Part shown: piece after piece, positions 127 to 48,524 of the stretch
Numbering within the stretch: the first letter of the stretch is position 1
How the letters are laid out: every line of letters starts with the position of its first letter
Virus record (IMG/VR): IMGVR_UViG_3300013947_000055
Span: 1-52,072 of that record
Strand: one strand, 5' to 3'
From: a virus
DNA: 52,072 bases
Notes under the pieces: generated by a model
Told to the model about the DNA's origin: nothing
The model's input: only the letters and a program-made list of their open reading frames with translations
Database searches by the model: none
Program-made: the position numbers and the translations under genes

Positions 127-155
127 TTTACATTCCCGAATCTTTGGAGCATAAT
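127..155 (+). promoter_or_regulatory. Sigma-70-type promoter (TTTACA-N17-CATAAT) of the conserved TTTACnTTyCCGAAT family
   Basis: -35 tttaca 127..132, 17-nt spacer ttcccgaatctttggag, -10 cataat 150..155; same spacer core (TTCCGAAT) as minus-strand promoters at 23.5, 38.6 and 46.5 kb. Confidence 0.6.
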
Positions 156-185
156 TTTAACCATACTGAGAAAGGAGATTTTCGT

Positions 186-767
186 ATGCTTTACGATCTC
201 AACACCGAGCAGGAGCGGAAAGACTTCCTCCTGGAGCTGTTGGAAAAGTCCCATGTCCCCGTGCAGACCTTCCCTTATTATTGGCTATGCTCTACAGACT
301 TCTTCAGAGCGCCCGCATCCCGTAAGTACCACGCCGCTTACGAGGGTGGTCTCTTTGAGCACAGCATGAATGTGGCAAGGCAGCTCGTACAGATGACCTT
401 GGCTGGACTTACCTCACCATGGGGTAGACCCGAAAGCCCAGTGATCATTGGTGTGCTGCATGATGTCACCAAGATTGGTCTGTATGCTCCTGGACGCGGC
501 GTCAATCCTGACACTGGCGAGCAAGAGCTATACGTCAAGAACCCTGAGTACAAGACCTATGGCGGGCACGGAGCTGATTCTGTACTCAAGCTCAAGGAGA
601 TCATGATGCTTACCCCTGAAGAGGAGGCCTGTATCCGCTACCACATGGGAGCCTATGAAACAGCAGACTGGGAGGCCTATGGCAATGCTATCAAGCAGTT
701 CCCGAACGTCCTCTGGACGCATACGGCGGATATGTATGCCGCCAAGGTGATGGAGGCGAATGTATAA
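186..767 (+). CDS. HD-domain phosphohydrolase
   Basis: RBS aaaggag (171..177) before ATG 186; the ORF-track TTG start at 144 lies inside the promoter. Motifs KYHAAYEGGLFEHS and GVLHDVTK match the H...HD metal site of HD hydrolases. Confidence 0.6.
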   Translation: MLYDLNTEQERKDFLLELLEKSHVPVQTFPYYWLCSTDFFRAPASRKYHAAYEGGLFEHSMNVARQLVQMTLAGLTSPWGRPESPVIIGVLHDVTKIGLYAPGRGVNPDTGEQELYVKNPEYKTYGGHGADSVLKLKEIMMLTPEEEACIRYHMGAYETADWEAYGNAIKQFPNVLWTHTADMYAAKVMEANV

Positions 768-1459
768 TGTCTTACTACTACCATCCGGACAGCGTCCGCT
801 ACATTAACAAGCGTATGCGCAGCATTACCAACCTGATCCTCATCATTACTGCTGGCCTGTTGGGTTTTATCGTCGGCTGCTACATAACAATCAGTGCACA
901 GTTCCAGACCCTTCAGCAGGAGGTGGAGGAAGTCCTTCAGACGTCCTCTGAAGTCCTTCAGGAGACACGGGAGCTTCAGCAGGAACTTATGTACCCAGCC
1001 GAGCAAACTGACGTCCTCGAGGACGAGATCGTCATCGAAGAGTCCCTCGTGTTCAACGACCCCGTGTATGACCAGCCCGCTACCATCCCCGACCTCGGCT
1101 GGGACTGGGACTACGTGCTGGGAGTGGTGGCTCAGGAGTGCTGGGGCGAACCTTATGACGGTCAGATGGCTGTGGCTCAGTGCATTCTGGACACGGCGCA
1201 GCTCCGTAACATGACCCCTGAAGAGGTTGTCAAGCTCCCCGGGAGATACGCTTCCCCTCTCGATTATGACAAGGCTAAGTCCGCTGTAGAGGATGCCTGT
1301 ATTGCCGTCTTCATCCTGGGAGAGAGGATCACCCCCGAACCTATCGAGTACTTTTACTCTACGGCTGGAGGCAAGTACTCTCACTGGCATGAGACTGACC
1401 TCACTCATGTGATGACCATCGGTAATCACAAGTTCTTTAAGACTAAGGAGGCTTTATGA
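767..1459 (+). CDS. Membrane-anchored SleB/CwlJ-like cell-wall hydrolase
   Basis: TAATG overlap with upstream gene; N-terminal TM helix ITNLILIITAGLLGFIVGCYITI; acidic coiled-coil linker; GVVAQECWGEPYDGQMAVAQCILDT resembles the Hydrolase_2 (SleB) core. Confidence 0.5.
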   Translation: MSYYYHPDSVRYINKRMRSITNLILIITAGLLGFIVGCYITISAQFQTLQQEVEEVLQTSSEVLQETRELQQELMYPAEQTDVLEDEIVIEESLVFNDPVYDQPATIPDLGWDWDYVLGVVAQECWGEPYDGQMAVAQCILDTAQLRNMTPEEVVKLPGRYASPLDYDKAKSAVEDACIAVFILGERITPEPIEYFYSTAGGKYSHWHETDLTHVMTIGNHKFFKTKEAL

Positions 1460-2466
1460 AGACCAAGCCGAACGATACCCCCTATTGTGGCGTAAACCAG
1501 TTCAAGATCCACGGTGCTCATCCCAAAGTCAACAACACCAACCTGAGAATCCTGTACAACTACATTCAGCGCCGCTATCAGGTTCACCTTCGTAAGGACG
1601 TGCTCAAGTTATCTGCACCATGGACGTCCGATACCATCCTTGCAGAGTATAGGTTCACCAACGTCCGGCGTGAGCACGACAGAGAGACCAGATGGCTTAT
1701 TGAGCACATCACCTCCAACAGAAAGCTGTCCTACGTAGACAAGATCTACAACTGTGTCCTATTCCGGCTGTATAACAAGCACCAGACTGCAGAACTACTT
1801 GGCTTACCTATCAAGTTCTCTGACGGCAACTTCGACCCTGAGAATTATGATGGTGTCTGGCAGGATGCCTTGGACGAGGATCCCAAACGAGTCTTCTTTA
1901 CGGGCGCATTCATGACCTCTGGTATGAAGCGCGTTCTCAGTCAGTACGTGCCAGAGGATCTGGGCGGGGACATTGCAGAAATGCGTCCCCTCTGGTTTAT
2001 GAAGTACCTTACCGAGCGCAACTTTGCGGGTATGTTGTCCTTCTGTGCTGATCAGAGCGAGGCCTATGAGCAGATCGCCGCTTACAATGGTATCGGCCGA
2101 TTCCTGGCCTACCAGATCTTTGTGGACTTTACCTACATAGAGGACTTCCCATACTCGGAGAATGAGTTCACGGTAGCCGGTATTGGCTGCAAGCGTGGTA
2201 TCAAGTATCTGTTTACCGATAGGGATCACCTGAATTACGAGGAGTGCCTGTTCTGGCTGCGAGACAACCTCGAAGACCTGTTTGCTAAACACCTTGGCAA
2301 GGACTTTGACCCTAAGACCCTCTTCTGGGATCTCCCTGAGGAAGACCGTTACATGAACGTCATGAGTCTGGAGAACTGTATGTGTGAGCTGTCCAAGTAC
2401 CTCAAGCTGATGCACGGTACAGGGCGTCCCCGTAAAAAGTACGTTCCCAGCGAGGAGGATTTATGA
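1456..2466 (+). CDS. aGPT-Pplase-like DNA base hypermodification protein (alpha-glutamyl/putrescinyl thymine pyrophosphorylase family)
   Basis: ATGA overlap with upstream gene; APWTSDTILAEYRFTNVRREHDRETRW matches my recollection of the family N-terminal signature (PWT-D-IL-YRF-NV-RE-DR-T). Confidence 0.5.
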   Translation: MKTKPNDTPYCGVNQFKIHGAHPKVNNTNLRILYNYIQRRYQVHLRKDVLKLSAPWTSDTILAEYRFTNVRREHDRETRWLIEHITSNRKLSYVDKIYNCVLFRLYNKHQTAELLGLPIKFSDGNFDPENYDGVWQDALDEDPKRVFFTGAFMTSGMKRVLSQYVPEDLGGDIAEMRPLWFMKYLTERNFAGMLSFCADQSEAYEQIAAYNGIGRFLAYQIFVDFTYIEDFPYSENEFTVAGIGCKRGIKYLFTDRDHLNYEECLFWLRDNLEDLFAKHLGKDFDPKTLFWDLPEEDRYMNVMSLENCMCELSKYLKLMHGTGRPRKKYVPSEEDL

Positions 2467-3275
2467 TCCCTGTATTTGTACCATCTTACCGGCGTCCTGA
2501 CGCCAAGTTCCTGCGGCGCAGCATGAACCAGAAGTTCCCGCTCTATGTCTTTGTCCGCAAGGAGGAGAAGGAAGCCTACTCCTGGATCAAAGCCAGACCC
2601 AACACCACCCTCGTCCTCATATCCAACGTGTCCAACATAGGTGAGACTCGCAGGGTCATGTTCAACTATGCAGTACACAAGGGCTTCGACAAGATCATCA
2701 TGCTCGACGATGACGTTACCCGACTTGACCTCTCCATGGTTGACCCAAAGTCCGGGAAGGTCAAGGCCTCCGGCAATGTCATCGGTTATGTGGAGGATTG
2801 GCATAAGGTGCTGCTGTGTTGGGAGGCAATCTGGACTGACGAAGCTATGCTGGGTGCAAGTTACCGTCCCTTTAGCTGGTCTCTTACCGAGGATGAGATC
2901 CCTATCCTCCGCAGATCCCAGCTCCAACAGGCTGTGGGGATCAACGTCAAGGCCATCCACAAGGCCGGTCTGAATTACCAGAGTAACGACCTTGTAGGCA
3001 ATGAAGATCTCTTCCTTCAGTTGGAGTGTTACCAGAAGGGACTGGAATGTGTCAAAACTAATGCAATCCAGTATGACTGTCCGGCCATGGGCGCGGGAAC
3101 AGGCGGTTGCAATGCGTCCGAGCTCGGCTCTATTCAGCAGAAGCAGCACAAGAGAGTAGCTCAGTTCGTGTTGGCCTGTAAGGATCCTACCCTTATCAAG
3201 ATCGCTAAGACTCGGTCAGGTGTGGAATCCGTCAAGTTCAACTGGAAAGCAATCAAATTCATCATGGAGGACTAA
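2463..3275 (+). CDS. GT-A-fold glycosyltransferase-like protein (TET/JBP-associated glycosyltransferase-like)
   Basis: ATGA overlap with upstream gene; N-terminal beta-strand IPVFVPSYRRP, DxD-type motif IIMLDDDV, later GNEDLF acidic motif. Confidence 0.45.
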   Translation: MIPVFVPSYRRPDAKFLRRSMNQKFPLYVFVRKEEKEAYSWIKARPNTTLVLISNVSNIGETRRVMFNYAVHKGFDKIIMLDDDVTRLDLSMVDPKSGKVKASGNVIGYVEDWHKVLLCWEAIWTDEAMLGASYRPFSWSLTEDEIPILRRSQLQQAVGINVKAIHKAGLNYQSNDLVGNEDLFLQLECYQKGLECVKTNAIQYDCPAMGAGTGGCNASELGSIQQKQHKRVAQFVLACKDPTLIKIAKTRSGVESVKFNWKAIKFIMED

Positions 3276-3278
3276 GAA

Positions 3279-3761
3279 ATGAATACTGACAAGCAATGGC
3301 TTGATATGGCATATAAGTACGCTATCGCTCACTCAGGTTGCCAGAAGGTCTCAGTAGGGTGTGTCATTACCAAGGGAGTCAACGGTACTGAAACTACTGC
3401 CAGTATGGGCGCAAACCGTACTCTTCCGCAGAACTGCAAGCTCATGGGATGCTGGCGTAAACAGATCCATGGGAATGACAGTAAAGCTCACCGTGGACCG
3501 GCTGATTGCATGGCTCTACACAGTGAGATCGACGCTTTAGCTATGGCAGCTCGTAACGGTGTGAGAGTGTTTGGCTCCACGGTCTATGTGACCCGCTACC
3601 CATGTGAGGCCTGTGCCCGAGCTCTCTGTGCTGCTGGAGTGGCTGAGGTCATTTATGGCGGTACAGCCGAGATCTCTATCATGACTGAACACATTTTCCG
3701 CAGCAACTGTGTAAAAGTACGTCACATCACCGACTGGATGGACGACAACTCTGACCGTTAA
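3279..3761 (+). CDS. dCMP/cytidine deaminase-family zinc enzyme
   Basis: RBS ggagg; HSEIDAL (H-x-E) and PCEACARAL (PCxxC) zinc/catalytic motifs; 160 aa. Confidence 0.8.
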   Translation: MNTDKQWLDMAYKYAIAHSGCQKVSVGCVITKGVNGTETTASMGANRTLPQNCKLMGCWRKQIHGNDSKAHRGPADCMALHSEIDALAMAARNGVRVFGSTVYVTRYPCEACARALCAAGVAEVIYGGTAEISIMTEHIFRSNCVKVRHITDWMDDNSDR

Positions 3762-3771
3762 GGAGACCTAT

Positions 3772-4350
3772 ATGAGTCACACAAAATACCTTACCAGCAC
3801 GCATCTCCAGATCCTAAAGAAAGCCCGTGACACCTACGGTGAGACCAACCAGATTCTGGTCTCCTGTGAAGAGCTGACTGAGCTTGCAGCCGTATGTGCC
3901 AAGTATCCCCGCTACACTGACCATGAGAAAGCTCACAACGACTTGTACGTCAAGGCACTGGATGAGGTCGCTGACGTGCTCATTGTCCTTGACCATGTGA
4001 TCAACATTTTTGACATCAAGCCCTATGACCTTCAGCAGCGCATCCATGGCAAGGTGAGCCGTCTTGAGCACTGGATGAACACATCTTCCAGCATGGAGCA
4101 GACCACCGTCGACAGAGAGGTTCCTGGACAGACTTCCCTTGAGGACTACAAGTGCCAGTCTTGTGTGTTTAAGAGCACTCCCGACTACATCTTCCCCTGT
4201 TCAGACTGCCACAACTTTGATCGCTACGTGAAAGCTACCCCGTGTGTAGGTTGTGCTCACAACGGTGACTATAAGCAGCTCAAAGAGGGCGGCGCTTGCG
4301 CTGAGTGCGTGAAAGATCCCGGCTGCAGATTCGTTAAAAAGGAGAACTAA
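3772..4350 (+). CDS. MazG-like all-alpha NTP pyrophosphohydrolase fused to a Cys-rich (multi-CxxC) C-terminal domain
   Basis: RBS aaggag; CEELTELAAV (EExxE) and LDEVADVLIVL (E..AD) motifs; C-terminus CQSC..CSDC..CVGC..CAEC. Confidence 0.6.
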   Translation: MSHTKYLTSTHLQILKKARDTYGETNQILVSCEELTELAAVCAKYPRYTDHEKAHNDLYVKALDEVADVLIVLDHVINIFDIKPYDLQQRIHGKVSRLEHWMNTSSSMEQTTVDREVPGQTSLEDYKCQSCVFKSTPDYIFPCSDCHNFDRYVKATPCVGCAHNGDYKQLKEGGACAECVKDPGCRFVKKEN

Positions 4351-7580: not shown

Positions 7581-7960
7581 ACAGAGTACCAGAAACTGCA
7601 AACACCTATGGTGTCTGTTGGTACTGTGGGAATACTGAAGGTCCGTTTGAGGTAGATCATGTATTCCCAAAGAGTTTAAGAAAAGACAATAGAAGGACTA
7701 ATCTGGTATGTTCCTGTAGAAAATGTAACAGAGAAAAGGGAGATAAAGCTCTGAGCTTTTTAGACCTGGAAGGAGAACCAGGATGGAGAGATCCCGATGT
7801 TATTGAGCAAGTTATAGATACCTATGCTCGTTTCTGTAGTGCTTTTGAGGAGGCACTTCCAGAAAAGTATGCTTCCTGGATCAAAAATCCCTTTGAGTCT
7901 TCTCATGTAAAATCTTTTAAGGAGGAACTTTCTCATGAGCTACCAGTTTGCCACGATTGA
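7577..7960 (+). CDS. Free-standing HNH endonuclease
   Basis: CWYCGNTEGPFEVDHVFPKS...NLVCSCRKCNREKGDK = classic HNH (CxxC...DH...N...CxxCN). Confidence 0.85.
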   Translation: MNRVPETANTYGVCWYCGNTEGPFEVDHVFPKSLRKDNRRTNLVCSCRKCNREKGDKALSFLDLEGEPGWRDPDVIEQVIDTYARFCSAFEEALPEKYASWIKNPFESSHVKSFKEELSHELPVCHD

Positions 7961-10001
7961 CATTGAAACTACTGGTCTTAACCGGTACAAAGACCGTATT
8001 ACATGGATTGGCGTCGGGCTTGCCAAAACTGTTGATGATGACCTGTCTAAGATTCTCATCTACGATGGCTCCAGCGAGGCTGATATGCGCAAGTTCCGTA
8101 ACGTCATGAAGCACGTCCGGGAAGCCAAGGCCAAGACTGTGTTCCAGAACGGTAAATTCGACACCCTCTTCATCGAGCACCATCTCGGTCTCAAGATCCC
8201 CATCCATGAAGACACGATGCTGATGGGTACAGCGTACGATCTTGTCGCTGAGCACGGTCTTAAAGCCATGGCTAAATCCTACCTTGGTGTACCTGACTGG
8301 GACATCAAGAAGAAGGACAAGCTCAGCGGTGATAAGGATACCATTGTTCCCTACCTGAAGTGTGACGTCAAGTACACATGGCAGCTCTATCAGTACCTGT
8401 GCTGCAACATGACCTCCCGACAGATGAAGCTCTACCGGGAGCTGCTCAGACCCGCTTATAGAGCATACAGAGACATTGAGCGCAATGGCCTCTACATTGA
8501 CCTTGATGCCTTACGGTCTGTACGCAAGAAGTACAATACTCAGGAGAAGAAGCTGCTTGCAGAGCTCAACAAGCACGCAAAGATCAACTGGAATAGCTCT
8601 GCACAGGTGGCAAAAGTGTTCTACGAACAGGAGAAAATGCCCATCATCAACTGGACAGCCAAGGGAGCTCCATCCATTGCTGCTGACGTTCTTAAGGAAC
8701 TCTCCATGCAGGGATATGAGACCCCGAAACTGCTGCTTGAGTACAAAGACGCTGCTACTCGTAACAAAATGTTCCTCAATCGTTGGGAGGACGACTGCTA
8801 TGAGAGCCGCATCCACCCGAGCTTCAATCTTACCAACGTGGTCTCAGGCAGAACAAGCTGTCTTACTGGGGATACTCCAGTGATGATTCCAGGGGGGTAT
8901 AAGCCCATTAAAGACATCAAAGTTGGAGACCTTGTGTATGGGTTTGACGAGAACCTAAAACCAAGACTATGCAAGGTCTCTTTTAGTGGGTGTACAGGAG
9001 TACGAGATGATGTGTACAGAGTTTGGTATAAGTCTCAAGGGACTCATGAGCTGAAGTACATAGACGCTACTTCTGATCATCTTGTACGGCTTACCTCTGG
9101 AGACTACCGAAGAGTTGATCAGTTGCATTGTAAAAAGAGAGATAGAGACCATGTACTTGCAATAGAACGTGGGTTCAAAGGAAGCAGAGAAAATCCACGT
9201 GGATATAGGATTTATCCAACAGGATGTGACACAGAGTTAGAGCATGTCTTTATCTTTAAGGAGCTACATGGGTACACTCCAGAGCATGTGCACCACAAAG
9301 ATGAAAATCCTCTGAATGATGAACCTGAGAATCTCATTGGACTCTCCGTAAGTGATCACGCAAGACTCCACATTCAGGAAAAGGGTGCTGACTGGCATAA
9401 GAAAGGAAATGCAGCTTCCTTAAAGACACGACAGAGTAAGGAATATAAAGAGTCCCTACATAGCTCAATTATGGAGTCCCGTTTATCCAAGAAAGACCTT
9501 GTAAAGGCTCTTAAAGAGGGTAACGGTCTGGTAGGAGCTGCTAAACTCCTTGGGAGAGACATCGGCTTTGTTGGTAATCGGATGAAGTACTATGGAGTAA
9601 CCTATGATGGTCGTTCTCATCGTAAAAAGAATAACCACACCATTTGGAAAGTAGAAAAACTTCCAGGAAAGTATGGAGTGTATGACATTTCTGTACCGGA
9701 AACTGAATGCTTTATTGCTAATGGAATCTGTGTCCATAACTGTAACAATCCCAACCTCCAGCAAGTACCCAGAACCAAGGACATCCGAGGTCTGTTTGCG
9801 GGCGCTCCAGGCATGATCCTCTTCGAGGCGGACTACTCTCAGTTGGAGCTACGCATTGCTGCTCACTACGCCAACGAGAAGACCATGCTGGACATTTACC
9901 GTAACAATGGTGATATTCATACTGAGACAGCCAAACTCTTTACCAACGGTCGCGCTCCTACTAAGGAGGAGAGAGGGAAAGCCAAGGCCGTGAATTTCGG
10001 T
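7935..10001 (+). CDS. DNA polymerase I (family A), exon 1, including an in-frame intein (8859..9740)
   Basis: RBS aaggagg; Exo I ATIDIETTG, Exo II NGKFDTLF, Exo III YLKCDVKY; motif A ILFEADYSQLELRIAAH; ends KAKAVNFG (first half of motif B). The TAA at 10002..10004 is intron sequence. Confidence 0.9.
8859..9740 (+). mobile_element. Intein (294 codons) with HNH homing-endonuclease domain, inserted in SGRTS|CNNPNLQQVP
   Basis: Starts CLTGDTPV (block A), TSDH (block B), VYDISVPETECFIANG (block F), ends GICVHN followed by +1 Cys; internal HVHHKDENPLNDEPENLIGLSVSDHARLH. Confidence 0.85.
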
Positions 10002-10633
10002 TAACCTACAAAGTAAGGCCGAATTAAAATCCCCTCAAAACGGTTGACCCTAAACGGAAACATATGGGAATCCCGTGCCTGTGTAAAAGCAGTGTGTAAC
10101 GACTTATCATGAATCGCTATCCTATGGATAAATCAATCGAATTCATGTATACGGGGGACAACGAAATCTGTGTAAGAAAGGAGGTATCTTGTAATGGCTT
10201 ATGCAAAAGTAACCTGTACAATCTGTGGTAAACAGTTCCAGCAAAAGAGCTGGAATCAGCATTTATGCTCTGATAAGTGTAGAACTGAGTTCTACGCGAG
10301 AAAAGGGCTTACTCGTATCTATGAGAATGGTAAATACGTAAAACATGGGTATGATCAAAAAGGAGAAAAGAATAACGCTTGGAAATATGGTTGTGCTTAT
10401 CGTCATCTTATTTCTATGGAACACTGTGAATGGTGTGGATCTACTAAGAACTTACTGGTACACCATAAGGATGGAGATCATAAACATAATGAAGTAAGCA
10501 ATCTGGTATGTCTTTGTAAAAGATGTCATCAGCAGTACCATTGCAAGAGAGATTCTCTCGGGAGATACACTACACATCGTTGAAGGTATAGTCTAGACCC
10601 CTAATAAATATCGGGAAACCGAGGGTATTATCG
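10002..10633 (+). mobile_element. Group I intron (632 nt) splitting polymerase motif B (NFG|FLYGM)
   Basis: Exon 1 ends in T (10001) that can form a U-G pair within P1: exon ttcggt (9996..10001) with intron gccgaa (10018..10023). Intron ends in G (10633). GAAA-tetraloop hairpin tcgg-gaaa-ccga 10611..10622. Joining 10001 to 10634 restores the frame and KAVNFGFLYGM. Confidence 0.75.
10194..10583 (+). CDS. Intron-encoded HNH homing endonuclease
   Basis: Own RBS aaaggagg; CTICGK...CSDKC zinc finger; LLVHHKDGDHKHNEVSNLVCLCKRCHQQYH HNH motif. Confidence 0.85.
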   Translation: MAYAKVTCTICGKQFQQKSWNQHLCSDKCRTEFYARKGLTRIYENGKYVKHGYDQKGEKNNAWKYGCAYRHLISMEHCEWCGSTKNLLVHHKDGDHKHNEVSNLVCLCKRCHQQYHCKRDSLGRYTTHR

Positions 10634-11155
10634 TTTCTATATGGTATGCAAGCAAAGAAGTTCGTCAAGTATGCTCTGGACAGCTATGGTCAAGTCTTTA
10701 CTCAGCGAGAGGCTGAGCACATCCGTGACCTGTTCTTTGCAAAGTATGCTCGGCTGTTACCTTGGCATAAGGAACAGGAAGATCTCTGTGAAATGCAGGG
10801 CGGCGTGGCGAATATGTTTGGTCGCTTCCGCAAGCTCCCTCTCATCTATTCCGCAAACAAGTGGGAACGGGCAAGTGCAGCTCGCCGTGCTATCAATACT
10901 CCAGTTCAGGGTTCAGGGTCTGATCTACTGATCTCTGCTGTGACCCAGATTAATAGGGAGCTCAAAGGTGTGGCATGGATCGGCGCTACTGTACACGACT
11001 CCATTATCGGTGAGTGCCGAGTTGAGGACAAGGACTTTGTGGATGAGACCATTCGCAGGGTCATGAAGCACCCTAAGGTCTTGGATGACTTTGGTGTTGA
11101 GCTCAGAGTGCCCTTGGATGTGGACATCGGATGGGGTCCTTGGGGAACTCACTAA
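10634..11155 (+). CDS. DNA polymerase I (family A), exon 2
   Basis: In-frame FLYGMQAKKF completes motif B; motif C ATVHDSIIGE; the ORF-track ATG at 10646 is internal to the exon. Confidence 0.8.
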   Translation, partial: FLYGMQAKKFVKYALDSYGQVFTQREAEHIRDLFFAKYARLLPWHKEQEDLCEMQGGVANMFGRFRKLPLIYSANKWERASAARRAINTPVQGSGSDLLISAVTQINRELKGVAWIGATVHDSIIGECRVEDKDFVDETIRRVMKHPKVLDDFGVELRVPLDVDIGWGPWGTH

Positions 11156-13899: not shown

Positions 13900-14577
13900 A
13901 TGAGCAGAAAACTTAAAGTTGACATGACCGGTGTTGAGAGCTTTACCCGCTGCCCCGAGGGTCAGTTCCCCGCCAAGATCGTTAAGATCGAGGAGTGCAC
14001 CATTCAGGGTTCTGGTGATGACGGCCTCAAGGTGCAGTTTGAGGTCACTGGTGGCTCTGGTAAGGGCTGCAAGGTCTTTGAGACCCTGTCCCTTGGTGAA
14101 AAGGCTCTCTGGAAACTCAAGATGCTCCTCGAAGCCCTCGGCATGAAGGCTACCGGCAAGCTCACCATCGATCTGGACAAGCTGCTGAATAAGGCTTGCG
14201 CCATCGAGGTCATCCATGACGAGTACAATGGTCAGAAGCGCGCCAAGATTTCCCAGTACCTCAAGCTCTCTGAGCTGGACGAAGAGGATGAAGTCGATGA
14301 GGACGATGACGACCTCGACGACGAGGAGGACGAGGAAGAGGTCAAGCCCGCCAAGAAGAATGTCACTAAGAAAAAGTCCAAGAAGCAGCCCGAGCCCGAA
14401 GAGGACGACGAGGATGATGAGGACGAGGATGAAGATGAGGATGACGACGAGGAGGAAGAAGAGCCCGCTCCCAAGTCCAAGAAGTCATCTAAGAAAGCCC
14501 CTGTTAAAAAGGCAACCAAGTCCTCCAAAAAGTCCAAGAAGGACGACGAGGATGATTGGGAAGAAGATGATGACTGA
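13900..14577 (+). CDS. DUF669-like ssDNA-binding protein with long acidic/Lys-rich tail
   Basis: RBS ggagg; N-terminus CPEGQFPAKIVKIEE...LKVQFEVTGG...KVFETLSL...ALWKLKMLLEALG fits the DUF669 pattern; tail EEDEEEVKPAKK...DDEDDEDEDEDEDDDEEEEE. Confidence 0.6.
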   Translation: MSRKLKVDMTGVESFTRCPEGQFPAKIVKIEECTIQGSGDDGLKVQFEVTGGSGKGCKVFETLSLGEKALWKLKMLLEALGMKATGKLTIDLDKLLNKACAIEVIHDEYNGQKRAKISQYLKLSELDEEDEVDEDDDDLDDEEDEEEVKPAKKNVTKKKSKKQPEPEEDDEDDEDEDEDEDDDEEEEEPAPKSKKSSKKAPVKKATKSSKKSKKDDEDDWEEDDD

Positions 14578-14625
14578 ACTCCAGTCTGCATAAAGGGCTT
14601 CCCACCTCAGTATTTACCATTCTAA

Positions 14626-14645
14626 GGGGGAGCACAAGCTCCCCC
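14626..14645 (+). terminator. GC hairpin (gggggagc-acaa-gctccccc)
   Basis: Perfect 8-bp stem with tetraloop, 49 nt after the stop codon; same GGGGG/CCCCC style as 11802..11817. Confidence 0.45.
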
Positions 14646-14664
14646 TCACATAAAGGAGACTATC

Positions 14665-15045
14665 ATGGACAAGATTAAGATCCACGAGCAGCTCTGCAAG
14701 GAAATGCATGAGCTGTACGAACGCAAGAATGCAGACTACGGGGATAGTTTTGCTCAACTCCGCAAGCGTTACCCGAACTTTGTCTGTATGCGCCTGTTTG
14801 ATAAGCTCAACCGTCTGGATACTGTCATCCAGCCTGAGTACGCGCTCAAGGTCTCTGATGAGACTGTTGAAGATACCCTCATGGACATTGCCAACTATGC
14901 CATCATGGAGCTGACTGAGCGTAGAGCAGCTCGTGAGGGGCTGAAGGAATCTATGTTTGCACAGGACGGCTGTAAGCCCTGCAATGAATCGATCAGGCCT
15001 CCTAACAAGTTGCCGGTGAACCTGACGACAGGAGGTTACAGATGA
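14665..15045 (+). CDS. DUF1599 (nucleotide modification associated domain 1), all-alpha NTP-PPase-like
   Basis: RBS aaaggag; ERKNADYGDSF, RLFDKLNRLDTV, EDTLMDIANYAIMEL match my recollection of DUF1599; translationally coupled (ATGA) to the ThyA-family gene. Confidence 0.65.
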   Translation: MDKIKIHEQLCKEMHELYERKNADYGDSFAQLRKRYPNFVCMRLFDKLNRLDTVIQPEYALKVSDETVEDTLMDIANYAIMELTERRAAREGLKESMFAQDGCKPCNESIRPPNKLPVNLTTGGYR

Positions 15046-15770
15046 TTTCTATCTATCAGGGCAGAAGCGTCAATGATGTCTGGCAACAGGCATTCGCAGA
15101 CCTCATCAAACAGGCTTCTGAGGGCTTTGAGAATGGCTCTCGGGATGGTGCAGTGGTCGGTGAAGTCATCAATGCTGCATTCTGTGTCGAAGACCCTACC
15201 CGTAACATTGTCACCAGTAAGTACCGCAAACTGCCTATGCGCTACGCAGTTGGTGAGCTGCTGTGGTATCTGTCTGGGTCTAACAAGACGACAGACATTG
15301 CTCAGTTCGCTCCTAAGTGGAATGAGCTCTCTGATGATGGTGTCCACGCAAACTCCGCCTATGGATACCGCATCGGCAAGAAGTTCGGCTTTGATCAGTG
15401 GGCTTATGCGGTTGATCTGCTCCGCAAAGACCCTGATAGTCGTCAGGCGGTTATCCACATTAAGGACGCTGACAATGCCAAGACCAAGGATCTGCCTTGC
15501 ACGGTCTACCTCCAGTTCCTGATCCGTGAAGGTAAGCTCCACATGATGGTGCACATGAGATCCAACGACATTTGGATGGGTGTTCCTTACGACATGTTCA
15601 GTTTCTGCTCCATGCAGATGCTGATGGCTATGCAGCTTGGAGTACAAGTCGGCAGTTACACTCATTATGCAGGCTCTCTGCACCTCTACAAGAGGGACTA
15701 TGAGACTGCCAAACACAACATGGAGGAGCTGAACCCCTATGGCAATACCCAGAGACGAGAAGCTCATTAA
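15042..15770 (+). CDS. Thymidylate synthase-family pyrimidine C5 (hydroxy)methylase, predicted dCMP-specific
   Basis: Catalytic Cys in DLPCTVY (15498..15500); ELLWYLSG, NSAYGYR, DPDSRQAV, MRSND; Asp184 (gac 15591..15593) in GVPYDMFS at the position of ThyA Asn177 / T4 dCMP hydroxymethylase Asp179. Confidence 0.75.
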   Translation: MISIYQGRSVNDVWQQAFADLIKQASEGFENGSRDGAVVGEVINAAFCVEDPTRNIVTSKYRKLPMRYAVGELLWYLSGSNKTTDIAQFAPKWNELSDDGVHANSAYGYRIGKKFGFDQWAYAVDLLRKDPDSRQAVIHIKDADNAKTKDLPCTVYLQFLIREGKLHMMVHMRSNDIWMGVPYDMFSFCSMQMLMAMQLGVQVGSYTHYAGSLHLYKRDYETAKHNMEELNPYGNTQRREAH

Positions 15771-16110
15771 GGTTATGGTCAAAGTCCTCAATGAGGACAG
15801 GGACGAACTGCGGTGGGAGCATCTTTGCTATGCTCCCGCCCTCCTGTACCTCAAGTTCTTAACTGTCAAGGATATTGAGCGCTTTGAACTGGCTGAGTAC
15901 CTGTCTAAGTGGGCTATGTTCGACTTTAATATAGACCTACAAATGACAAAAAGTAGTGACCTTGCACTTCTTAAGGAGCTCATTGTAAATCGTTACAAAA
16001 AGATGTTCCCTTACCTTGCAAGGTCTTTTAATGACAGCCATGTAGACCACCAAGGATGGGTGAGAATCTGGCTGACAGACCACATGGAAAGGGAGCTGAA
16101 GAGAAAATGA
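15739..16110 (+). CDS. Hypothetical protein (start uncertain; an alternative ATG is at 15775)
   Basis: ORF in the operon with 32-nt overlap on the upstream gene; no motif recognised. Confidence 0.45.
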   Translation: MAIPRDEKLIKVMVKVLNEDRDELRWEHLCYAPALLYLKFLTVKDIERFELAEYLSKWAMFDFNIDLQMTKSSDLALLKELIVNRYKKMFPYLARSFNDSHVDHQGWVRIWLTDHMERELKRK

Positions 16111-16532
16111 CTGAACCTAACTGGAAGAAGACCCTGCCTAAGATCGTAGCCGTGGACTTTGATGGTACACTGGTAAAGGATGCCTACCCTAACGTAGGTG
16201 AACCTATTTGGTCTATGATAAACTATTGCAAAGCCCTCAGAAAGGCCGGGGTCAAGCTAATTCTCTGGACCAGCAGAGACAATGAGACTCCTGACAGAGC
16301 ACTTGACAGAGCTGTAAACTGGTGCAAGGACAATGGTCTTGAGTTTGATGCAGTAAATGAGAATCTGCCTGAGCTCAAGGAAATTTTCCAGAATGATACC
16401 CGTAAGGTCTATGCAGACCTGTACATTGACGACAAGGCTGTGTTTGCTGGTCAGCATCCTATTCATTGGCTACATAGGATTGGTCTCAGCTGGGATGCTT
16501 TGGTAAAGGGGTTTTATGGGCTTAGAAAGTAA
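16107..16532 (+). CDS. HAD-superfamily phosphatase
   Basis: ATGA coupling at 16107; motif I VAVDFDGTL, motif II LWTSRD, motif IV YIDDK. Confidence 0.6.
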   Translation: MTEPNWKKTLPKIVAVDFDGTLVKDAYPNVGEPIWSMINYCKALRKAGVKLILWTSRDNETPDRALDRAVNWCKDNGLEFDAVNENLPELKEIFQNDTRKVYADLYIDDKAVFAGQHPIHWLHRIGLSWDALVKGFYGLRK

Positions 16533-16893
16533 CTTTCAGTCCAGAGCTCTGGAGTATCTCAATTCTATTCCTGGCTGCAAGGCTGAGAACGTGTCCGGCA
16601 ATGCCATGCAGTCGGGTAGACCTGACATCAATGGCTGCTTTCATGGTCGTGCGTTCAAACTGGAGCTAAAAGTTCCTGACCACAAGAACGCGACCAGTAA
16701 AAAGCAGGAGCTTGAGCTTCGTAAATGGGCTACCGTAGGCTGTTCTATCGGAGTCCTCTATTCTATGACTGCCCTAAAAGACTGGGTCAGCACAATGCAG
16801 CATCTCTGTAAGGAGAGTTATTGGACTGGAGAGCCTTGGGTAGTGACCAAGAGGGAAGAGGAGAACGGTTGTGAATCTTGGTTCTGGGTCTAA
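16516..16893 (+). CDS. VRR-NUC domain nuclease
   Basis: GRPDING...AFKLELK matches the PD-(D/E)XK core of VRR-NUC; lies directly upstream of an SNF2 helicase, a common phage pairing. Confidence 0.55.
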   Translation: MGLESNFQSRALEYLNSIPGCKAENVSGNAMQSGRPDINGCFHGRAFKLELKVPDHKNATSKKQELELRKWATVGCSIGVLYSMTALKDWVSTMQHLCKESYWTGEPWVVTKREEENGCESWFWV

Positions 16894-18301
16894 GTTCATA
16901 TTCAAGACGAAGCCTTGGGCACATCAGCTCAAGGCTCTTGAATATATGTATCCTCGGGATGCAGCAGCTCTATACACAAAACCTGGATCAGGTAAGACCA
17001 AGATCATGATTGACCTCGTGGTCAATAGGGGCTTTAAGAGGGTGTTGGTAGTAGCTCCTAAAAAGCCCTGTGACGTCTGGAAACCTCAGATTCAACTCCA
17101 CTCTGACATTCCTCCTGACCATGTGTATGAGCTGCACAACATGACCGGCAAGGAAAAGGCGGCCTTGTTAAAAACCTTTAAGCCCGTAAAGCCCGGAGAG
17201 GGCTGCACTATCTTTATCTGTAACTATGACTCTATCTGGCAAAAGCCTGTGGACAAGGTCTGGTTCTATAAGAAACTGGGGATTGACTGCGTCATCTGTG
17301 ATGAGAGCCATCGTATCAAGTCCCCGTCAAGCAAGTGCTCATGCTTCTTAGCCCGATTAGGCAGAGTTGTACCTCACCGCTACCTACTGACAGGTACTCC
17401 TCTGGCAGAGAATCCCTTGGACGTATACGCGCAGTACAGATTCCTTGACCGGTCTATTTACGGTACGAATTACTCTGCATTCTGTGACAAGTACCTGAAC
17501 ATTGACGTCAACCTCAGTGCCAGAGTTGGCTTCCCTATAAAGGACAAGAAGCAGCCTTACAAAAACCTTGATGATCTTAGGGAGAAGATGTTTAGCTGTG
17601 CGTTCTACATGAAGTCCACGGTAAAGCTCGCCAAGCCTACTCACATGGTTAAGAAGATTCCAATGCCCGCTGGACTGGAATATCTGTATAAGGAACTGTC
17701 TAAAGAAGGTGCTCTCGAGATGGACGAGGGCTACATGACCGTGAATAATGCTCTGTCTATGGTCATCCGCAAGCAGCAGGTGACGAGTGGATACTTACCT
17801 TTAGAGCATGACGATGGCACAACCGAGCTGAAGCGGATAAGCACCTACCGGCGCACATATCTGTATCAGTTCCTCAAGGGTCTACCTGAGTCTGAACCAG
17901 TGGTCATTTTCGCAAAGTTCTCGAAAGACCTGTATGCTATCCGCAAGGTGGCCGAAAGGCTCGGCTGTGGATACTCTGAGGTATCAGGAAAAGAGGACTC
18001 CCTAAGAGTCTGGAAGTCTGGCAAGACTCGTATCCTCGGGGTACAGTATACAGCAGGGTCGGAGAGTATTGACCTGACAAGAGCTCACCTGTGCATCTTC
18101 TATACCCTTGACCATTCTTTAGGTAAGTATGACCAAGCCCGTGCTCGTGTTCGCCGTCCTGGTCAGGAAAAGCCTTGTATTTACTATCACTTTGTAGCAA
18201 CCATGTCTTCGGGTAAGACCATCGACCAAGAGATTCTTCAGTGCTGGAAGGACAAGAAAAACTACATAGACTTTGTCATGGAAAATTCTCAAAAATCATG
18301 A
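16871..18301 (+). CDS. SNF2/Rad54-family helicase
   Basis: Motif I KPGSGKT, motif II VICDESHRIK, LLTGTPLAENPLD, C-terminal helicase domain (QARARVRRPGQ). Confidence 0.85.
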   Translation: MNLGSGSKFIFKTKPWAHQLKALEYMYPRDAAALYTKPGSGKTKIMIDLVVNRGFKRVLVVAPKKPCDVWKPQIQLHSDIPPDHVYELHNMTGKEKAALLKTFKPVKPGEGCTIFICNYDSIWQKPVDKVWFYKKLGIDCVICDESHRIKSPSSKCSCFLARLGRVVPHRYLLTGTPLAENPLDVYAQYRFLDRSIYGTNYSAFCDKYLNIDVNLSARVGFPIKDKKQPYKNLDDLREKMFSCAFYMKSTVKLAKPTHMVKKIPMPAGLEYLYKELSKEGALEMDEGYMTVNNALSMVIRKQQVTSGYLPLEHDDGTTELKRISTYRRTYLYQFLKGLPESEPVVIFAKFSKDLYAIRKVAERLGCGYSEVSGKEDSLRVWKSGKTRILGVQYTAGSESIDLTRAHLCIFYTLDHSLGKYDQARARVRRPGQEKPCIYYHFVATMSSGKTIDQEILQCWKDKKNYIDFVMENSQKS

Positions 18302-18404
18302 GTTTTCTTTATTTTCGGGTATTTTCCTTACAGATTCACAGAGAAAAGTCCTAAAGTCTTGCATTTCTGTAAGTTTTCCAAACTTATCTACAAGATTTTA
18401 GGGC

Positions 18405-18433
18405 TTTACTTCTGTGAAGGGATGATATATGAT
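18405..18433 (+). promoter_or_regulatory. Consensus-family promoter gcTTTACT-N17-TATGAT with no protein gene downstream
   Basis: -35 tttact 18405..18410, spacer tctgtgaagggatgata (17 nt), -10 tatgat 18428..18433; same gcTTTACTT core as the late promoters. Confidence 0.55.
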
Positions 18434-18439
18434 GTAATC

Positions 18440-18692
18440 ACGATAAGGACAGCACCCTCACCGTTCGTGGTACGATCAAGGCTCACTCCGAGTACCACGG
18501 TGTACGTCAAACGGAGCTCCCTCGGTGCAAAGTCGCGTGAATCCCGTTCTTCAGTCAGTTTATCTAAGTAATTTCGTCAGCTACGAGGTGGGGGTAGGTG
18601 AGTTTGCCCCCGGAAGTCAGCTGACCTCCTCGAGGATTTCAGCTTAGAAAGATCTCCCCCGCCTGTGACGAGGGAGATCTTCCTTATTTATT
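18440..18692 (+). ncRNA. Candidate structured non-coding RNA (about 250 nt) between promoter 18405..18433 and terminator 18649..18681
   Basis: No ATG and no RBS-preceded ORF. Predicted helices: caccg-ttc-gtggtac with gtaccacggtg; gggggt...gccccc; gtcagct...agctgac. Confidence 0.4.
18649..18681. terminator. Convergence-point hairpin terminator (aagatctccc-N13-gggagatctt)
   Basis: Perfect 10-bp stem followed on the plus strand by ccttatttatt; lies between the convergent plus and minus arms. Confidence 0.6.
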
Positions 18693-18814
18693 CGGACTGT
18701 ACGGAACAATGCGCTGCTCGGCTTCACTCCAGACATACATAGGGACGTCAAAGTGAGGGTGATCTACAATGACATAGCGGTCGTTACCGACCCTTATGAA
18801 TAACTGAGGCTGAC

Positions 18815-19423
18815 TCAGCAGATGTCCACACCGATCGTCTTGCATTTCTCTTTATACTCCTCATGGTATTTGTCCTGAAGCATCTGCACGTACTCAGAGC
18901 TGTAATCCACAGCACGGAGCTCCAAGCACAGGCGTTCCAGATACTTGAGCTCCATGTCCACGTCACAGATGAGGCCGTTGACCTTGTTGAAGTCTGCGAT
19001 GCAATGCCACTCCAGCAGATAGTGAGCGCACTTCTCAAAGAGCGCCTTGGTCTCAGTCTCCCAAGACTTGTACTGCTCCATGGCTTTCTGCACGGTCTGT
19101 TTACGTACCCCAGCGGGGACGTCAGTCCGGTTGTACTGATACCAGTCGTACGGGATGATCTCTACGGGCTCCAGGTCCTCCTCAGGGATCAGCGACCCGT
19201 GGTGGTTGATATAGTACCTCTTGATGGCACGGTGCTCAGCAGACTCGGCGAAGTACTGATACTCGTGCATCCGTTTGAAGCCCCTTAGACCCAGAAAATC
19301 AAACAGGTCAGCCATCTCATCATGGAACATGAGAGCCGTGATCTGTCTGGCATTGATGTCAGTAAAGACTTCCTTAACGTCTTTAGGAGCATACTCTTCC
19401 ACAGAGAGCTTCATCTTTGCCAT
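18815..19423 (-). CDS. Hypothetical protein, possibly ferritin-like four-helix bundle
   Basis: LGLRGFKRMHEYQYFAESAEHRAIKRYYINHHG loosely parallels the ferritin helix B E-x-x-H region; last gene of the minus arm. Confidence 0.3.
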   Translation of the reverse strand: MAKMKLSVEEYAPKDVKEVFTDINARQITALMFHDEMADLFDFLGLRGFKRMHEYQYFAESAEHRAIKRYYINHHGSLIPEEDLEPVEIIPYDWYQYNRTDVPAGVRKQTVQKAMEQYKSWETETKALFEKCAHYLLEWHCIADFNKVNGLICDVDMELKYLERLCLELRAVDYSSEYVQMLQDKYHEEYKEKCKTIGVDIC

Positions 19424-43169: not shown

Positions 43170-43449
43170 ACTGTGTACCCCCTTCCTCTACGCTCTGTCC
43201 AAAGAGCTTACTGTTGTTGTGCTCAAAAATATTTTCAAGAACTTTGAGAATACCCACTCCCAAGATGGTATGGATAGCGGGCTCTGACAGCTCTGCCATG
43301 GTGTAGACCTGCTGTAACTTGACCGTCGAGTAGACGGCAATCCCATAGCTGATAAACACCCACACAAGCGCCGACACCTGTGTAGTTATGAACAGCATCC
43401 TCGTGATGCTCACCATCTTGGCTTTGGTAAGTCTTTTGCCTTTGCTCAT
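43141..43449 (-). CDS. Small membrane protein
   Basis: ATGA coupling to the terL stop; hydrophobic helices ([23 protein letters not shown]; [11 protein letters not shown]). Confidence 0.5.
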
Positions 43450-44771
43450 GCAATCTCTCCTCTCCTGCTGTTGCGCGGGATGTACTTAATGTCTGCGACC
43501 TCGTAAGTGTCCAGAGCGTACCAGATCGCCGAGAACGTATGCGGGTCAATGTTGAACTCGTCATAGATGAGGTTGTCCTGCTTGTCCTTGGCATAGATTA
43601 GCGTGCTGAGCTCCCTTATCGTGTTAGGACAGTTGGGAGAACAGACAATCTTGTGGAAACGCTTGACTTTCCTCGTGTTGGCGAGTCGTGACCCTGCATA
43701 CTTGTGACAACCACGCATTCTAAATCCCGACTGTCGATAGAATGCAATGGCTTTAGGATCTTCGCAGTCGGCGATAATTTGAACCTTGTCAAGTCCATCC
43801 TTCTTGAGCTCCTTCTCAGTTTTGTCGTCAGTCATGTGGTTGCGGTAGTACTCGTAGTAAATGTAAAGGATCTTCTGTGCGTCGTCTATGGCGACCTTGA
43901 CCACCGCATTGTAAGACTCCTCAAAGCCGAAGTCCATGCCGCAGAACTTGAACTTGTCCGGAATCACTGCAACCGCAGCCATCACAGCCTTGTGGGACGC
44001 AGCCACCTCAAACTGAGGCAGAACCCTCTTACCGTTGAGGCCAAACCTACCAAGACGGGCGATTCTGTACAGGTCGGGATCGTACTCTCGCATCTGGTCA
44101 AGGGTCTCTATATAAGACTGAGGTAAGAACAGGTTGTCGTCAGCCACACTGTGATGGTAGTACACTCCATTCTTGACGATCGTACGACGCTTGTACAGGA
44201 CTTTGTCATCAAGAGTGATGTGCTCATTACCCTCATCGTCCAGCCGCTTAAAGAAGTGCTGGTACACCCAGTTTTCCGTCCCAACCGGATTTGTAGACAG
44301 AATAAAATGCAGCGACAGCGTAGGATGACGCAGACGACCGAGCAGCTCCTTGTAGCCAGCATATTTGATCTCAGAGCACTCTTCCAGCCAGACTATTGTC
44401 ACGCCGTTAATGGACTTGAGCTTTGTGGGCTTGTCCATGCCCTTGAAGATAATCACAGACCCGTTAGGGAACCTGATCTTCATAGGGGAGACGGAGCAGC
44501 GGACTTTGTTCTTGCTTGTGCCAACAAGGTCAAACTCCTCCAAGATCTCGACCAACAGGTCATAGCAAGAGTCACGGATGGTATCAAACACCTCTCTGAC
44601 CACAAGCACCTTTCTCTTCTCTTGGAGACACTTTAAGATGATCTTGAGCGCAATGTGGTAGGACTTACTCGACCCGTAACCACCGACCAGAAGGTAAGTC
44701 TTGTAATCCCAGTCCCAAATGAAGCTCTCGAATCTGGGATTGACTTCCTTATCCACAACCATTGATGTCAT
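43446..44771 (-). CDS. terL: Terminase large subunit
   Basis: Walker [12 protein letters not shown], Walker B VWLEE, C-terminal RNase H-like nuclease region (GMDFG...IADCE). Confidence 0.9.
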
Positions 44772-47963: not shown

Positions 47964-48524
47964 ATGTACTATGGCAACATCAAGGACTGTGACATCGCCA
48001 ACGGAGAGGGGGTAAGAATTTCCCTGTTCGTGTCGGGATGCACAAACCACTGCCGAGGCTGCTTCCAGCCCGAGACGTGGGACTTCAAGTATGGCAGTCC
48101 ATTCACTTTCAAGGTACAGGATGACATCCTGAGTATGCTCGCACCATCCTATATCGATGGTCTCACCGTCCTGGGAGGCGAACCCTTTGAGCCGTCCAAT
48201 CAGCACTCCCTCCTGCCGTTCCTGGAGCTGGTACACAACATTTACCCCGACAAGACCATCTGGATGTACACAGGCTTTACCTACGAGGACCTCATCACTC
48301 CCGGAGCTCATCCTCACACTGCTATCACCAGCAAGATCCTCGGTCTCATCGACGTCCTTGTAGATGGTCCATTCGACATCGACCAGAGCGACATCTCACT
48401 CAGGTTTAGAGGCTCACGCAACCAGCGCATCATCGACGTACCACCTACGCTCTCCACGGGTCACGTAGTCCTTTACGACGAGGTCGCACATCATCCCTGG
48501 ATGACCAAGCACTCCCAGTTCTGA
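47964..48524 (+). CDS. nrdG: Anaerobic ribonucleoside-triphosphate reductase activating protein (radical SAM)
   Basis: RBS taaggagg; DCDIANGEGVRISLFVSGCTNHCRGCFQPETW (CxxxCxxC) and GLTVLGGEP, collinear with T4 NrdG as I recall it. Confidence 0.85.
   Translation: MYYGNIKDCDIANGEGVRISLFVSGCTNHCRGCFQPETWDFKYGSPFTFKVQDDILSMLAPSYIDGLTVLGGEPFEPSNQHSLLPFLELVHNIYPDKTIWMYTGFTYEDLITPGAHPHTAITSKILGLIDVLVDGPFDIDQSDISLRFRGSRNQRIIDVPPTLSTGHVVLYDEVAHHPWMTKHSQF

Follow-up and report, generated by a model that had tools for sequence, protein, structure and literature searches.

Positions 1 to 52,072 of IMG/VR virus record IMGVR_UViG_3300013947_000055, a stretch that we refer to throughout as the window, carry at 15042..15770 an open reading frame (ORF) of the thymidylate synthase (ThyA) family. 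The window looks like a nearly complete phage genome of ~52 kb; a large terminase and a small-terminase-like protein are encoded, as is a replication module (primase-helicase, split family-A polymerase, PD-(D/E)XK nuclease, Sak4 and SNF2) in which the ThyA-family gene is located, and the same genes recur, with 89-100% identical proteins, on a 53,317-bp IMG/VR contig. ORF 15042..15770 is the sole ThyA homologue in this roughly complete genome. Our principal conclusion, drawn from sequence and a structural model and held with considerable confidence, is that it probably encodes a folate-dependent deoxycytidine monophosphate (dCMP) hydroxymethylase of the T4 gp42 type, with 5-hydroxymethyl-dCMP as its predicted product. 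The identity of the base that finally appears in the DNA is much less certain than the substrate and product of the enzyme.

Active site and relatives of the enzyme

The ORF opens with an ATG preceded by GGAGG and encodes 242 residues, in which the motifs ELLWYLSG (residue 72), NSAYGYR (104), DPDSRQAV (130), DLPCTVY (150), MRSND (172) and MGVPYDMFS (179) are all found as the earlier note had given them, along with the codons of Cys153 and Asp184 (Table 1). Cys153 aligns with C146 of E. coli ThyA (C148 of T4) and is invariant in the homologue alignment. Asp184 lies opposite the Asn of 'gvpfNias' in solved ThyA structures and opposite the Asp of MilA in HMMER pairwise alignments, and MAFFT alignments equate it with Asn177 of E. 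coli ThyA and Asp179 of T4 gp42 (MRSNDVVFGFRND). The placement agrees across three independent alignments (HMMER, MAFFT), which bears out the original proposal that an Asp has taken the place of Asn177.

Exchange of Asn177 for Asp shifts the preference of these enzymes from deoxyuridine monophosphate (dUMP) to dCMP (PMC8670742, PMC13326640), and in T4 dCMP hydroxymethylase, where Asp179 determines the choice of cytosine, kcat drops about 3600-fold in D179N (PMC6400193). Asp at this position is a published diagnostic that has already been used in metagenome and metavirome surveys (PMC8670742, 10.1101/2024.12.05.627091). Fitting this known pattern, the enzyme is an ordinary one, one more of a known type, and is itself of little novelty; its hallmark residue is a textbook, metagenome-scale marker of cytosine-specific ThyA homologues. 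Nor is Asp184 a chance variant, since Asp is invariant across the clade, being present in 120/120 homologues (65-96% identity), in 149 of 150 representatives of 50%-identity clusters (38-68% identity) and in all 82 related viral loci.

A wider signature, comprising positions 80/143/146/147/165/168/169/177 in ThyA numbering, gives the same picture. The query reads WDCTMNDD and is identical to T4 dCMP hydroxymethylase at all eight positions, a string shared with the enzymes of Enterococcus phage VPE25 and Lactobacillus phage ATCCB. The dUMP hydroxymethylases of SP10, PaMx11 and CP-51 read MDCNNNDN, that of the ViI-like phage SM5 reads ADCNNQDN, and E. coli ThyA reads WLCHQCDN. VPE25 and ATCCB, cultured relatives that share the signature, have genes for sugar transfer close by: in VPE25, whose enzyme is 43% identical and whose DNA is bisulfite-resistant and cytosine-modified (PMC4999554), a T4-like beta-glucosyltransferase gene lies one gene downstream, and in ATCCB the enzyme gene is directly adjacent to a beta-glucosyltransferase gene.

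The nature of the product is indicated by three further residues. Asp150 occupies the Leu143-equivalent position, three residues before the catalytic Cys, and Ser105 and Tyr107 correspond to T4 Ser94 and Tyr96; all three are invariant in our alignment of closer homologues (alignment A2, also used for a profile scan of viral contigs). In the T4 enzyme Asp145, Ser94 and Tyr96 hold a water molecule, and even D145N abolishes formation of 5-hydroxymethyl-dCMP (PMC6400193); Asp or Glu rather than Leu at position 143 gives a hydroxymethyl and not a methyl outcome (PMC13326640, PMC8670742, PMC6400193). The presence of Asp150, Ser105 and Tyr107 thus points to hydroxymethylation, and the choice between 5-hydroxymethyl- and 5-methyl-dCMP, which the earlier note had left open, can be narrowed to the former. 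Its claim of a dCMP-specific enzyme is supported by all available sequence and structure tests. As to the sugar, Ser174 and Arg134 stand opposite Ala and Lys of MilA in the HMMER alignment, and in MilA it is Ala176/Lys133, as against Ser/Arg, that decides between cytidine monophosphate (CMP) and dCMP (PMC5175136); the query pair therefore indicates dCMP, not CMP.

By homology, Cys153 would attack C6 of dCMP, Asp184 would read and protonate the N3/N4 face of cytosine, and the methylene group of methylenetetrahydrofolate would be moved to C5. The exocyclic methylene would then be hydrated rather than reduced, since Asp150, Ser105 and Tyr107 would hold water where ThyA has Leu143, to give 5-hydroxymethyl-dCMP and tetrahydrofolate.

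An AlphaFold2 model of the protein (mean predicted local distance difference test score, pLDDT, 88.4) has MilA as its best fold match among solved structures (Foldseek template modelling score, TM, 0.85; root-mean-square deviation 2.0), followed by T4 dCMP hydroxymethylase (TM 0.75), the HY126 dCMP hydroxylase AfhB (0.73) and ThyA entries (about 0.70). MilA is likewise the best sequence match in the PDB (2.6e-33, 118 bits), with ThyA entries reaching at most 85 bits.

Nucleotide genes of the window

The genes that surround the enzyme, together with a second block of nucleotide genes about 11-14 kb upstream, are collected in Table 1.

Table 1. Positions in the window of the enzyme gene, its active-site codons and the other features discussed.
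Feature	Position	Strand	Length	Evidence and context
HD-domain metal-dependent phosphohydrolase	144..767	+	207 aa	PHROG 28876 at 1e-26; conserved in L013 and several relatives
SleB-type cell-wall hydrolase domain protein	767..1459	+		Hydrolase_2, 3.8e-6
Clade-1 aGPT-Pplase homologue (PF18723 'HMUDK_hel')	1456..2466	+	336 aa	PF18723 at 1.9e-63
TAGT-like (GT-A) DNA glycosyltransferase	2463..3275	+	270 aa	PF20691 TAGT 5.1e-14; PHROG 842 'beta-glucosyl-HMC-alpha-glucosyltransferase' 5.8e-14
dCMP-deaminase-family enzyme	3279..3761	+	160 aa	PF00383 1.4e-14; PHROG 174 dCMP deaminase; syntenic in relatives
MazG-like nucleoside triphosphate pyrophosphohydrolase	3772..4350	+	192 aa	PHROG 2245 at 1.8e-11; beside deaminase in relatives
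Family-A polymerase, interrupted	7935..11155	+		
Polymerase ORF with intein splicing domain and HNH_3 endonuclease	7935..10004			
Free-standing HNH ORF	10194..10583			
Polymerase C-terminus, separate ORF	10646..11155			
DUF669 protein	13900..14577	+		~100-residue tail extremely rich in Asp, Glu and Lys
DUF1599 ('nucleotide modification associated domain 1') protein	14665..15045	+	126 aa	PF07659 at 4.1e-9
Predicted dCMP hydroxymethylase, ThyA family (5-hydroxymethyl-dCMP synthase)	15042..15770	+	242 aa	PF00303 Thymidylat_synt 8.7e-32; signature; model
Codon of Ser105	15354..15356			
Codon of Tyr107	15360..15362			
Codon of Arg134	15441..15443			
Codon of Asp150	15489..15491			
Codon of Cys153 (TGC)	15498..15500			
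Codon of Thr154	15501..15503			
Codon of Met172	15555..15557			
Codon of Ser174	15561..15563			
Codon of Asp176	15567..15569			
Codon of Asp184 (GAC)	15591..15593			
Conserved ORF	15739..16110	+	123 aa	Overlaps 3' end of hydroxymethylase gene
HAD-type phosphatase	16056..16532	+	158 aa	NCBIfam BT0820-family HAD phosphatase 4.8e-29 (below cutoff); PHROG 24386/1238
Large terminase	43446..44771	-		
NrdG-type anaerobic ribonucleotide reductase activase	47964..48524	+		1.6e-50
Spo0A C-terminal-domain protein	49455..49829	+		1.8e-22

The stop codon of the DUF1599 gene overlaps the start of the hydroxymethylase gene as ATGA, and the earlier placing of a DUF1599 gene at 14665..15045 stands. Its label 'all-alpha NTP-PPase-like' is weakly supported, by a model that forms a helical bundle (pLDDT 77) and by a sole marginal match, 2P06 (AF_0060; Foldseek E 0.13, probability 0.98, TMt 0.61; phmmer E 0.61). 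Kinship to nucleoside triphosphate pyrophosphohydrolases is plausible, and the protein is a candidate enzyme of the nucleotide pool. Conservation is high over a core of residues 1-88, which includes the motifs KNADYGDSF and EDTLMDIANY and the conserved acidic residues E66, E69, D70 and D74. The predictions made for aGPT-Pplase, TAGT and DUF1599 proteins reportedly go back to Iyer et al. 2013.

In relatives as well, DUF1599 fills the position directly ahead of the hydroxymethylase gene. Upstream sequence of 4 kb or more before the Asp-type enzyme is available for 67 related viral loci (hereafter the sister set); in these, the position holds DUF1599 in 19, a deoxynucleoside monophosphate (dNMP) kinase in 22 and both in none (hypergeometric P about 1e-4, with no correction for phylogeny), which suggests that the two are alternative cassettes or stand in some functional relationship. 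Downstream, the conserved ORF that overlaps the hydroxymethylase gene finds no match in Pfam, PHROG or NCBIfam, and its homologue lies directly downstream of the enzyme in 57 of the 82 related loci; the HAD phosphatase is kept downstream in 59 of the 82 and may act on the dNMP pool as a nucleotidase. The DUF669 product is a probable single-stranded DNA-binding or recombination accessory protein. A megablast search of 14000..19000 against GenBank phages returned no match.

The second block, which is syntenic in relatives, comprises the HD phosphohydrolase, the PF18723 protein, the TAGT-like glycosyltransferase, the dCMP-deaminase-family protein and the MazG-like enzyme. The HD phosphohydrolase is a candidate enzyme of the deoxynucleoside triphosphate (dNTP) or dNMP pool, and the MazG-like protein a candidate dCTPase or dTTPase. 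The TAGT-like protein, for which no match was found among PDB sequences, is predicted to glycosylate a hydroxymethyl group in DNA. The deaminase is a candidate for action either on dCMP or on 5-hydroxymethyldeoxycytidine (5hm-dC) nucleotides, which it would convert to 5-hydroxymethyldeoxyuridine (5hm-dU) nucleotides. Phage enzymes of this family that are linked to Asp177 ThyA homologues often prefer 5-methyl-dCTP or 5-hydroxymethyl-dCTP and yield 5hm-dU in vivo (10.1101/2024.12.05.627091); selectivity for 5-methylcytosine (5mC) and 5-hydroxymethylcytosine (5hmC) is reported to be polyphyletic, with no determinants stated.

The PF18723 protein has as homologues PaMx11 gp50 and the C-terminal half of SP10 gp186. 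No function has been assigned to M6 gp55, its clade's paralogue, which was dispensable for reconstitution in vitro (PMC8989533). Pfam labels the domain '5-hmdU DNA kinase, helical domain', and we considered and rejected a kinase role: the protein has no Walker A motif or P-loop, and its homology is not to the P-loop kinases PaMx11 gp49 and SP10 gp186N. Between this gene and that of the HD phosphohydrolase lies the SleB-type hydrolase gene, an unusual location, inside an early nucleotide-metabolism block, for a lysis-type enzyme. By tblastn, the window contains no second ThyA homologue or hydroxymethylase, no T4-like beta-glucosyltransferase and no radical SAM enzyme.

The Spo0A C-terminal-domain gene and the NrdG-like activase gene indicate that the host is probably an anaerobic, spore-forming Firmicute, and the nearest cultured enzyme comes from an Agathobaculum phage; NrdD was not noticed in the window. 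The family-A polymerase is interrupted, with an intein-bearing ORF, a free-standing HNH ORF and a separate ORF for its C-terminus.

Competing substrates and the final DNA base

Among the alternatives the strongest is an SPO1/SP10/M6/ViI-type dUMP hydroxymethylase that feeds thymine hypermodification, Asp184 being tolerated in the clade. We consider it unlikely, although a number of observations weigh in its favor and against a cytosine-specific enzyme. The nearest cultured relative, the 55% identical enzyme of Agathobaculum phage AB434P2, is annotated 'deoxyuridylate hydroxymethyltransferase'. The clade-1 aGPT-Pplase homologue of the window is 37-38% identical to proteins of Ackermannviridae (ViI-like phages that hypermodify 5-hydroxymethyluracil, 5hmU), one of which is annotated aGPT-Pplase clade 1. 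A dCMP deaminase, a source of dUMP in 5hmU phages, is conserved, and no dNMP kinase for 5-hydroxymethyl-dCMP was found in the window by tblastn. A P-loop 5-hmdU DNA kinase homologue is encoded in 32 of the 67 sister loci and a homologue of the amino-acid:DNA transferase (ADDT, PF18724) in 31, mostly within 4 kb upstream of the enzyme (28 loci for the kinase); about half of the sister phages thus place a PF18748 kinase beside the Asp-type enzyme, which at face value argues for a uracil pathway. PF18748 was confirmed by Pfam in four loci (8e-23 to 2.6e-28), PF18724 giving weaker matches, and the one kinase tested, that of locus L024 (9055..9642), is 47% identical to the validated 5-hmdU DNA kinase of SP10 (gp186N).

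Examples from the sister loci (L021-L095) in which the kinase and ADDT/aGPT-Pplase2 genes lie immediately upstream are L024 (8120..9642), L031 (6005..9515), L045 (7968..9516) and L091 (7630..9093). In L091, a 41-kb relative, ADDT and kinase are fused in one 488-residue ORF, and a DUF4406-domain protein (9097..9984; 4.6e-25) is encoded between this fusion and the Asp-type hydroxymethylase. Some sister loci also contain TAGT and radical SAM genes.

Against a dUMP hydroxymethylase stands the active site itself. All four dUMP hydroxymethylases that we examined from 5hmU phages carry the trio Asn147/Asn165/Asn177 and lack Trp80, whereas the query has Thr, Met and Asp at these positions together with Trp80, as in T4 gp42; the invariance of Asp in the clade and the loss of activity in T4 D179N speak in the same sense. 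The genomic context can, furthermore, be explained otherwise, as phage deaminases that turn 5hm-dC nucleotides into 5hm-dU are documented. The label of the AB434P2 enzyme appears to have been assigned automatically, given the Asp signature of the protein, which is probably misannotated. In the window, P-loop HMUDK and ADDT queries (from L016 and PaMx11) gave no tblastn match at E<0.1 and no matching ORF with a Walker A motif was seen; the thymidine hypermodification set of PF18748 and PF18724 is thus absent, and only the clade-1 paralogue PF18723 is present. Upstream of the AB434P2 enzyme (L001 416..4500) lie genes for a dUTPase_2-like protein, a dNMP kinase, a choline-kinase-like protein and a cytidylyltransferase, which may hint at another kind of 5hmC decoration.

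A dCMP methyltransferase of the Xp12 type, which would make 5-methyl-dCMP and release dihydrofolate, shares Asp at the Asn177 position, and N229D turns L. casei thymidylate synthase into a dCMP methylase (PMC8670742, 10.1101/2024.12.05.627091). We nevertheless judge it very improbable. The query has Asp150 where methylating enzymes of the thymidylate synthase type have Leu, and the hydrophobic residue expected at 143 in an Xp12-type enzyme is not found; D145N in T4 abolishes the hydroxymethyl product, Ser105 and Tyr107 match the water-holding pair of T4, and the window encodes a glycosyltransferase that requires a hydroxyl group. The sequence used for contrast was the 'thymidylate synthase' of Microbacterium phage Clayda5 (L097 4848..5762), which combines Leu143 with Asp177 and has a dihydrofolate reductase (DHFR) gene two genes upstream, whereas no DHFR gene is found in the window. 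The Clayda5 signature is that expected of a dCMP methylase (giving 5mC) and not of a dTMP synthase.

Less probable again is a flavin-dependent 5-hydroxy-dCMP synthase (RB69 gp48, DLP3 gp80 or HY126 AfhB type), which would provide 5-hydroxycytosine for glycosylation. The ThyA fold, N177D and L143D are common to both kinds of enzyme, a glycosyltransferase is encoded in the genome, and AfhB is a significant fold match. The mark of these synthases is, however, Asn in place of Asp169 (PMC13326640), and D169N is not present: Asp176, the corresponding residue, is kept in 120/120 homologues and 150/150 cluster representatives, which argues against such an activity, and MilA is a far better structural match. 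Least probable of all is a canonical dTMP-making thymidylate synthase or a MilA-like CMP hydroxymethylase acting on ribonucleotides, for even though relatives are labelled 'thymidylate synthase' in databases and MilA is the best PDB match, the NCBIfam ThyA equivalog models all score far below cutoff (best 96 bits against 327), the canonical residues Leu143, His147, Gln165 and Asn177 are replaced by Asp, Thr, Met and Asp, Ser174/Arg134 are of the deoxy type, and the gene lies among phage genes for DNA replication.

Given a dCMP hydroxymethylase, the thymine-hypermodification-type genes, which were not seen in the earlier note, complicate the question of the final base. All cultured phages that we checked with kinase/ADDT modules use Asn-type dUMP hydroxymethylases; in the sister lineage a cytosine-type hydroxymethylase occurs alongside genes that have until now been connected only with thymine hypermodification. 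It is tempting to speculate, and we do so tentatively, that the single Asp-type enzyme is the only source of hydroxymethylated pyrimidines in the lineage. This could operate in either of two ways. A deaminase could turn part of the 5hm-dC nucleotides into 5hm-dU so that both pyrimidines are replaced; TAGT-like enzymes would then glycosylate 5hmC, and the aGPT-Pplase, 5-HMUDK and ADDT modules would build on 5hmU. Alternatively, the kinase and transferase modules could be retargeted to 5hmC, giving amino-acid or polyamine hypermodification of cytosine. High identity between the kinases and 5hmU-acting enzymes is in keeping with the deamination route. In the literature covered by our search we found no report of a 5hmC DNA kinase or of amino-acid-type cytosine hypermodification, and the main text of the papers gives no base-recognition residues of Pplase2 that separate uracil from cytosine. 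If either version is true, these phages would run thymine-type hypermodification genes in the absence of a dUMP hydroxymethylase.

For the phage of the window itself, gene content suggests the following course. The DUF1599, MazG-like, HD and HAD hydrolases would shape the dNTP and dNMP pools; phosphorylation of 5-hydroxymethyl-dCMP would fall to the host, there being no dNMP kinase in the window. The phage family-A polymerase would incorporate the modified nucleotide, and once the DNA is replicated its hydroxymethyl groups would be decorated by the TAGT-like glycosyltransferase. Some of the 5hm-dC nucleotides may be drawn off to 5hm-dU by the deaminase-family enzyme, which would explain the thymine-hypermodification-type genes. 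For a phage with no more than the TAGT-like transferase and the clade-1 Pplase, the simplest end product is glycosylated 5hmC, possibly with a contribution from 5hmU.

Taken together, these findings bear on annotation and on biology alike. The labels 'thymidylate synthase' and 'dUMP hydroxymethyltransferase' can be corrected for the window protein and its relatives, as can the kinase label of PF18723, a protein without a P-loop. The lineage, one of gut phages that probably come from anaerobic, spore-forming Firmicutes, is represented abundantly by metagenome contigs of ~50 kb, which number in the hundreds; it is a system in which to ask whether 5hmU arises through 5hmC nucleotides, or whether 5hmC is phosphorylated and aminoacylated in DNA.

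Comparison with known systems

T4 gp42 (PDB 1B49/1B5E; ternary complex PMC6400193) shares with the enzyme its fold, a similar length (242 residues against a T4 gene of 741 nt), the catalytic Cys and the counterparts Asp179/Asp184, Asp145/Asp150 and Ser94-Tyr96/Ser105-Tyr107, and both phages encode a dCMP-deaminase-family enzyme and a DNA glycosyltransferase. Overall identity is, however, about 28%, and the window is a ~52 kb genome with a Firmicute host rather than a T-even myovirus. It has no gp1-type dNMP kinase, its glycosyltransferase is TAGT-like and not of the T4 alpha/beta type, and it has a clade-1 aGPT-Pplase, which T4 lacks.

MilA, the CMP 5-hydroxymethylase of Streptomyces rimofaciens (PDB 5JNH/5B6D), is the best match in both sequence (about 35% identity) and fold; it is specific for cytosine and has Asp at the equivalents of positions 177 and 143 alike (PMC13326640). 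It differs in the ribonucleotide preference conferred by Ala176/Lys133, where the query has Ser174/Arg134 as in dCMP and dUMP enzymes, in its length of 325-342 residues in deposited constructs, and in its role in antibiotic biosynthesis rather than phage DNA modification.

Closer in sequence (42-43% identical) and with the same signature are the enzymes of Enterococcus phages VPE25/VFW and Lactobacillus phage ATCCB, whose genes neighbor one for a T4-like beta-glucosyltransferase. These are, however, phages of ~80-86 kb with Pol III-type replication, and no aGPT-Pplase or TAGT was seen in the regions examined.

The dUMP hydroxymethylases of the thymine-hypermodifying phages (SP10 gp188, PaMx11 gp51/M6, ViI-like, CP-51) are 31-34% identical, with a ThyA fold and Asp at the Leu143 position, and adjoin aGPT-Pplase and 5-HMUDK genes as do the enzymes of the window's sister phages. 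They differ in their C-terminal extensions of about 100-140 residues, which the query lacks, and in having Asn at 177, 147 and 165 without Trp80, where the query has Asp, Thr and Met with Trp.

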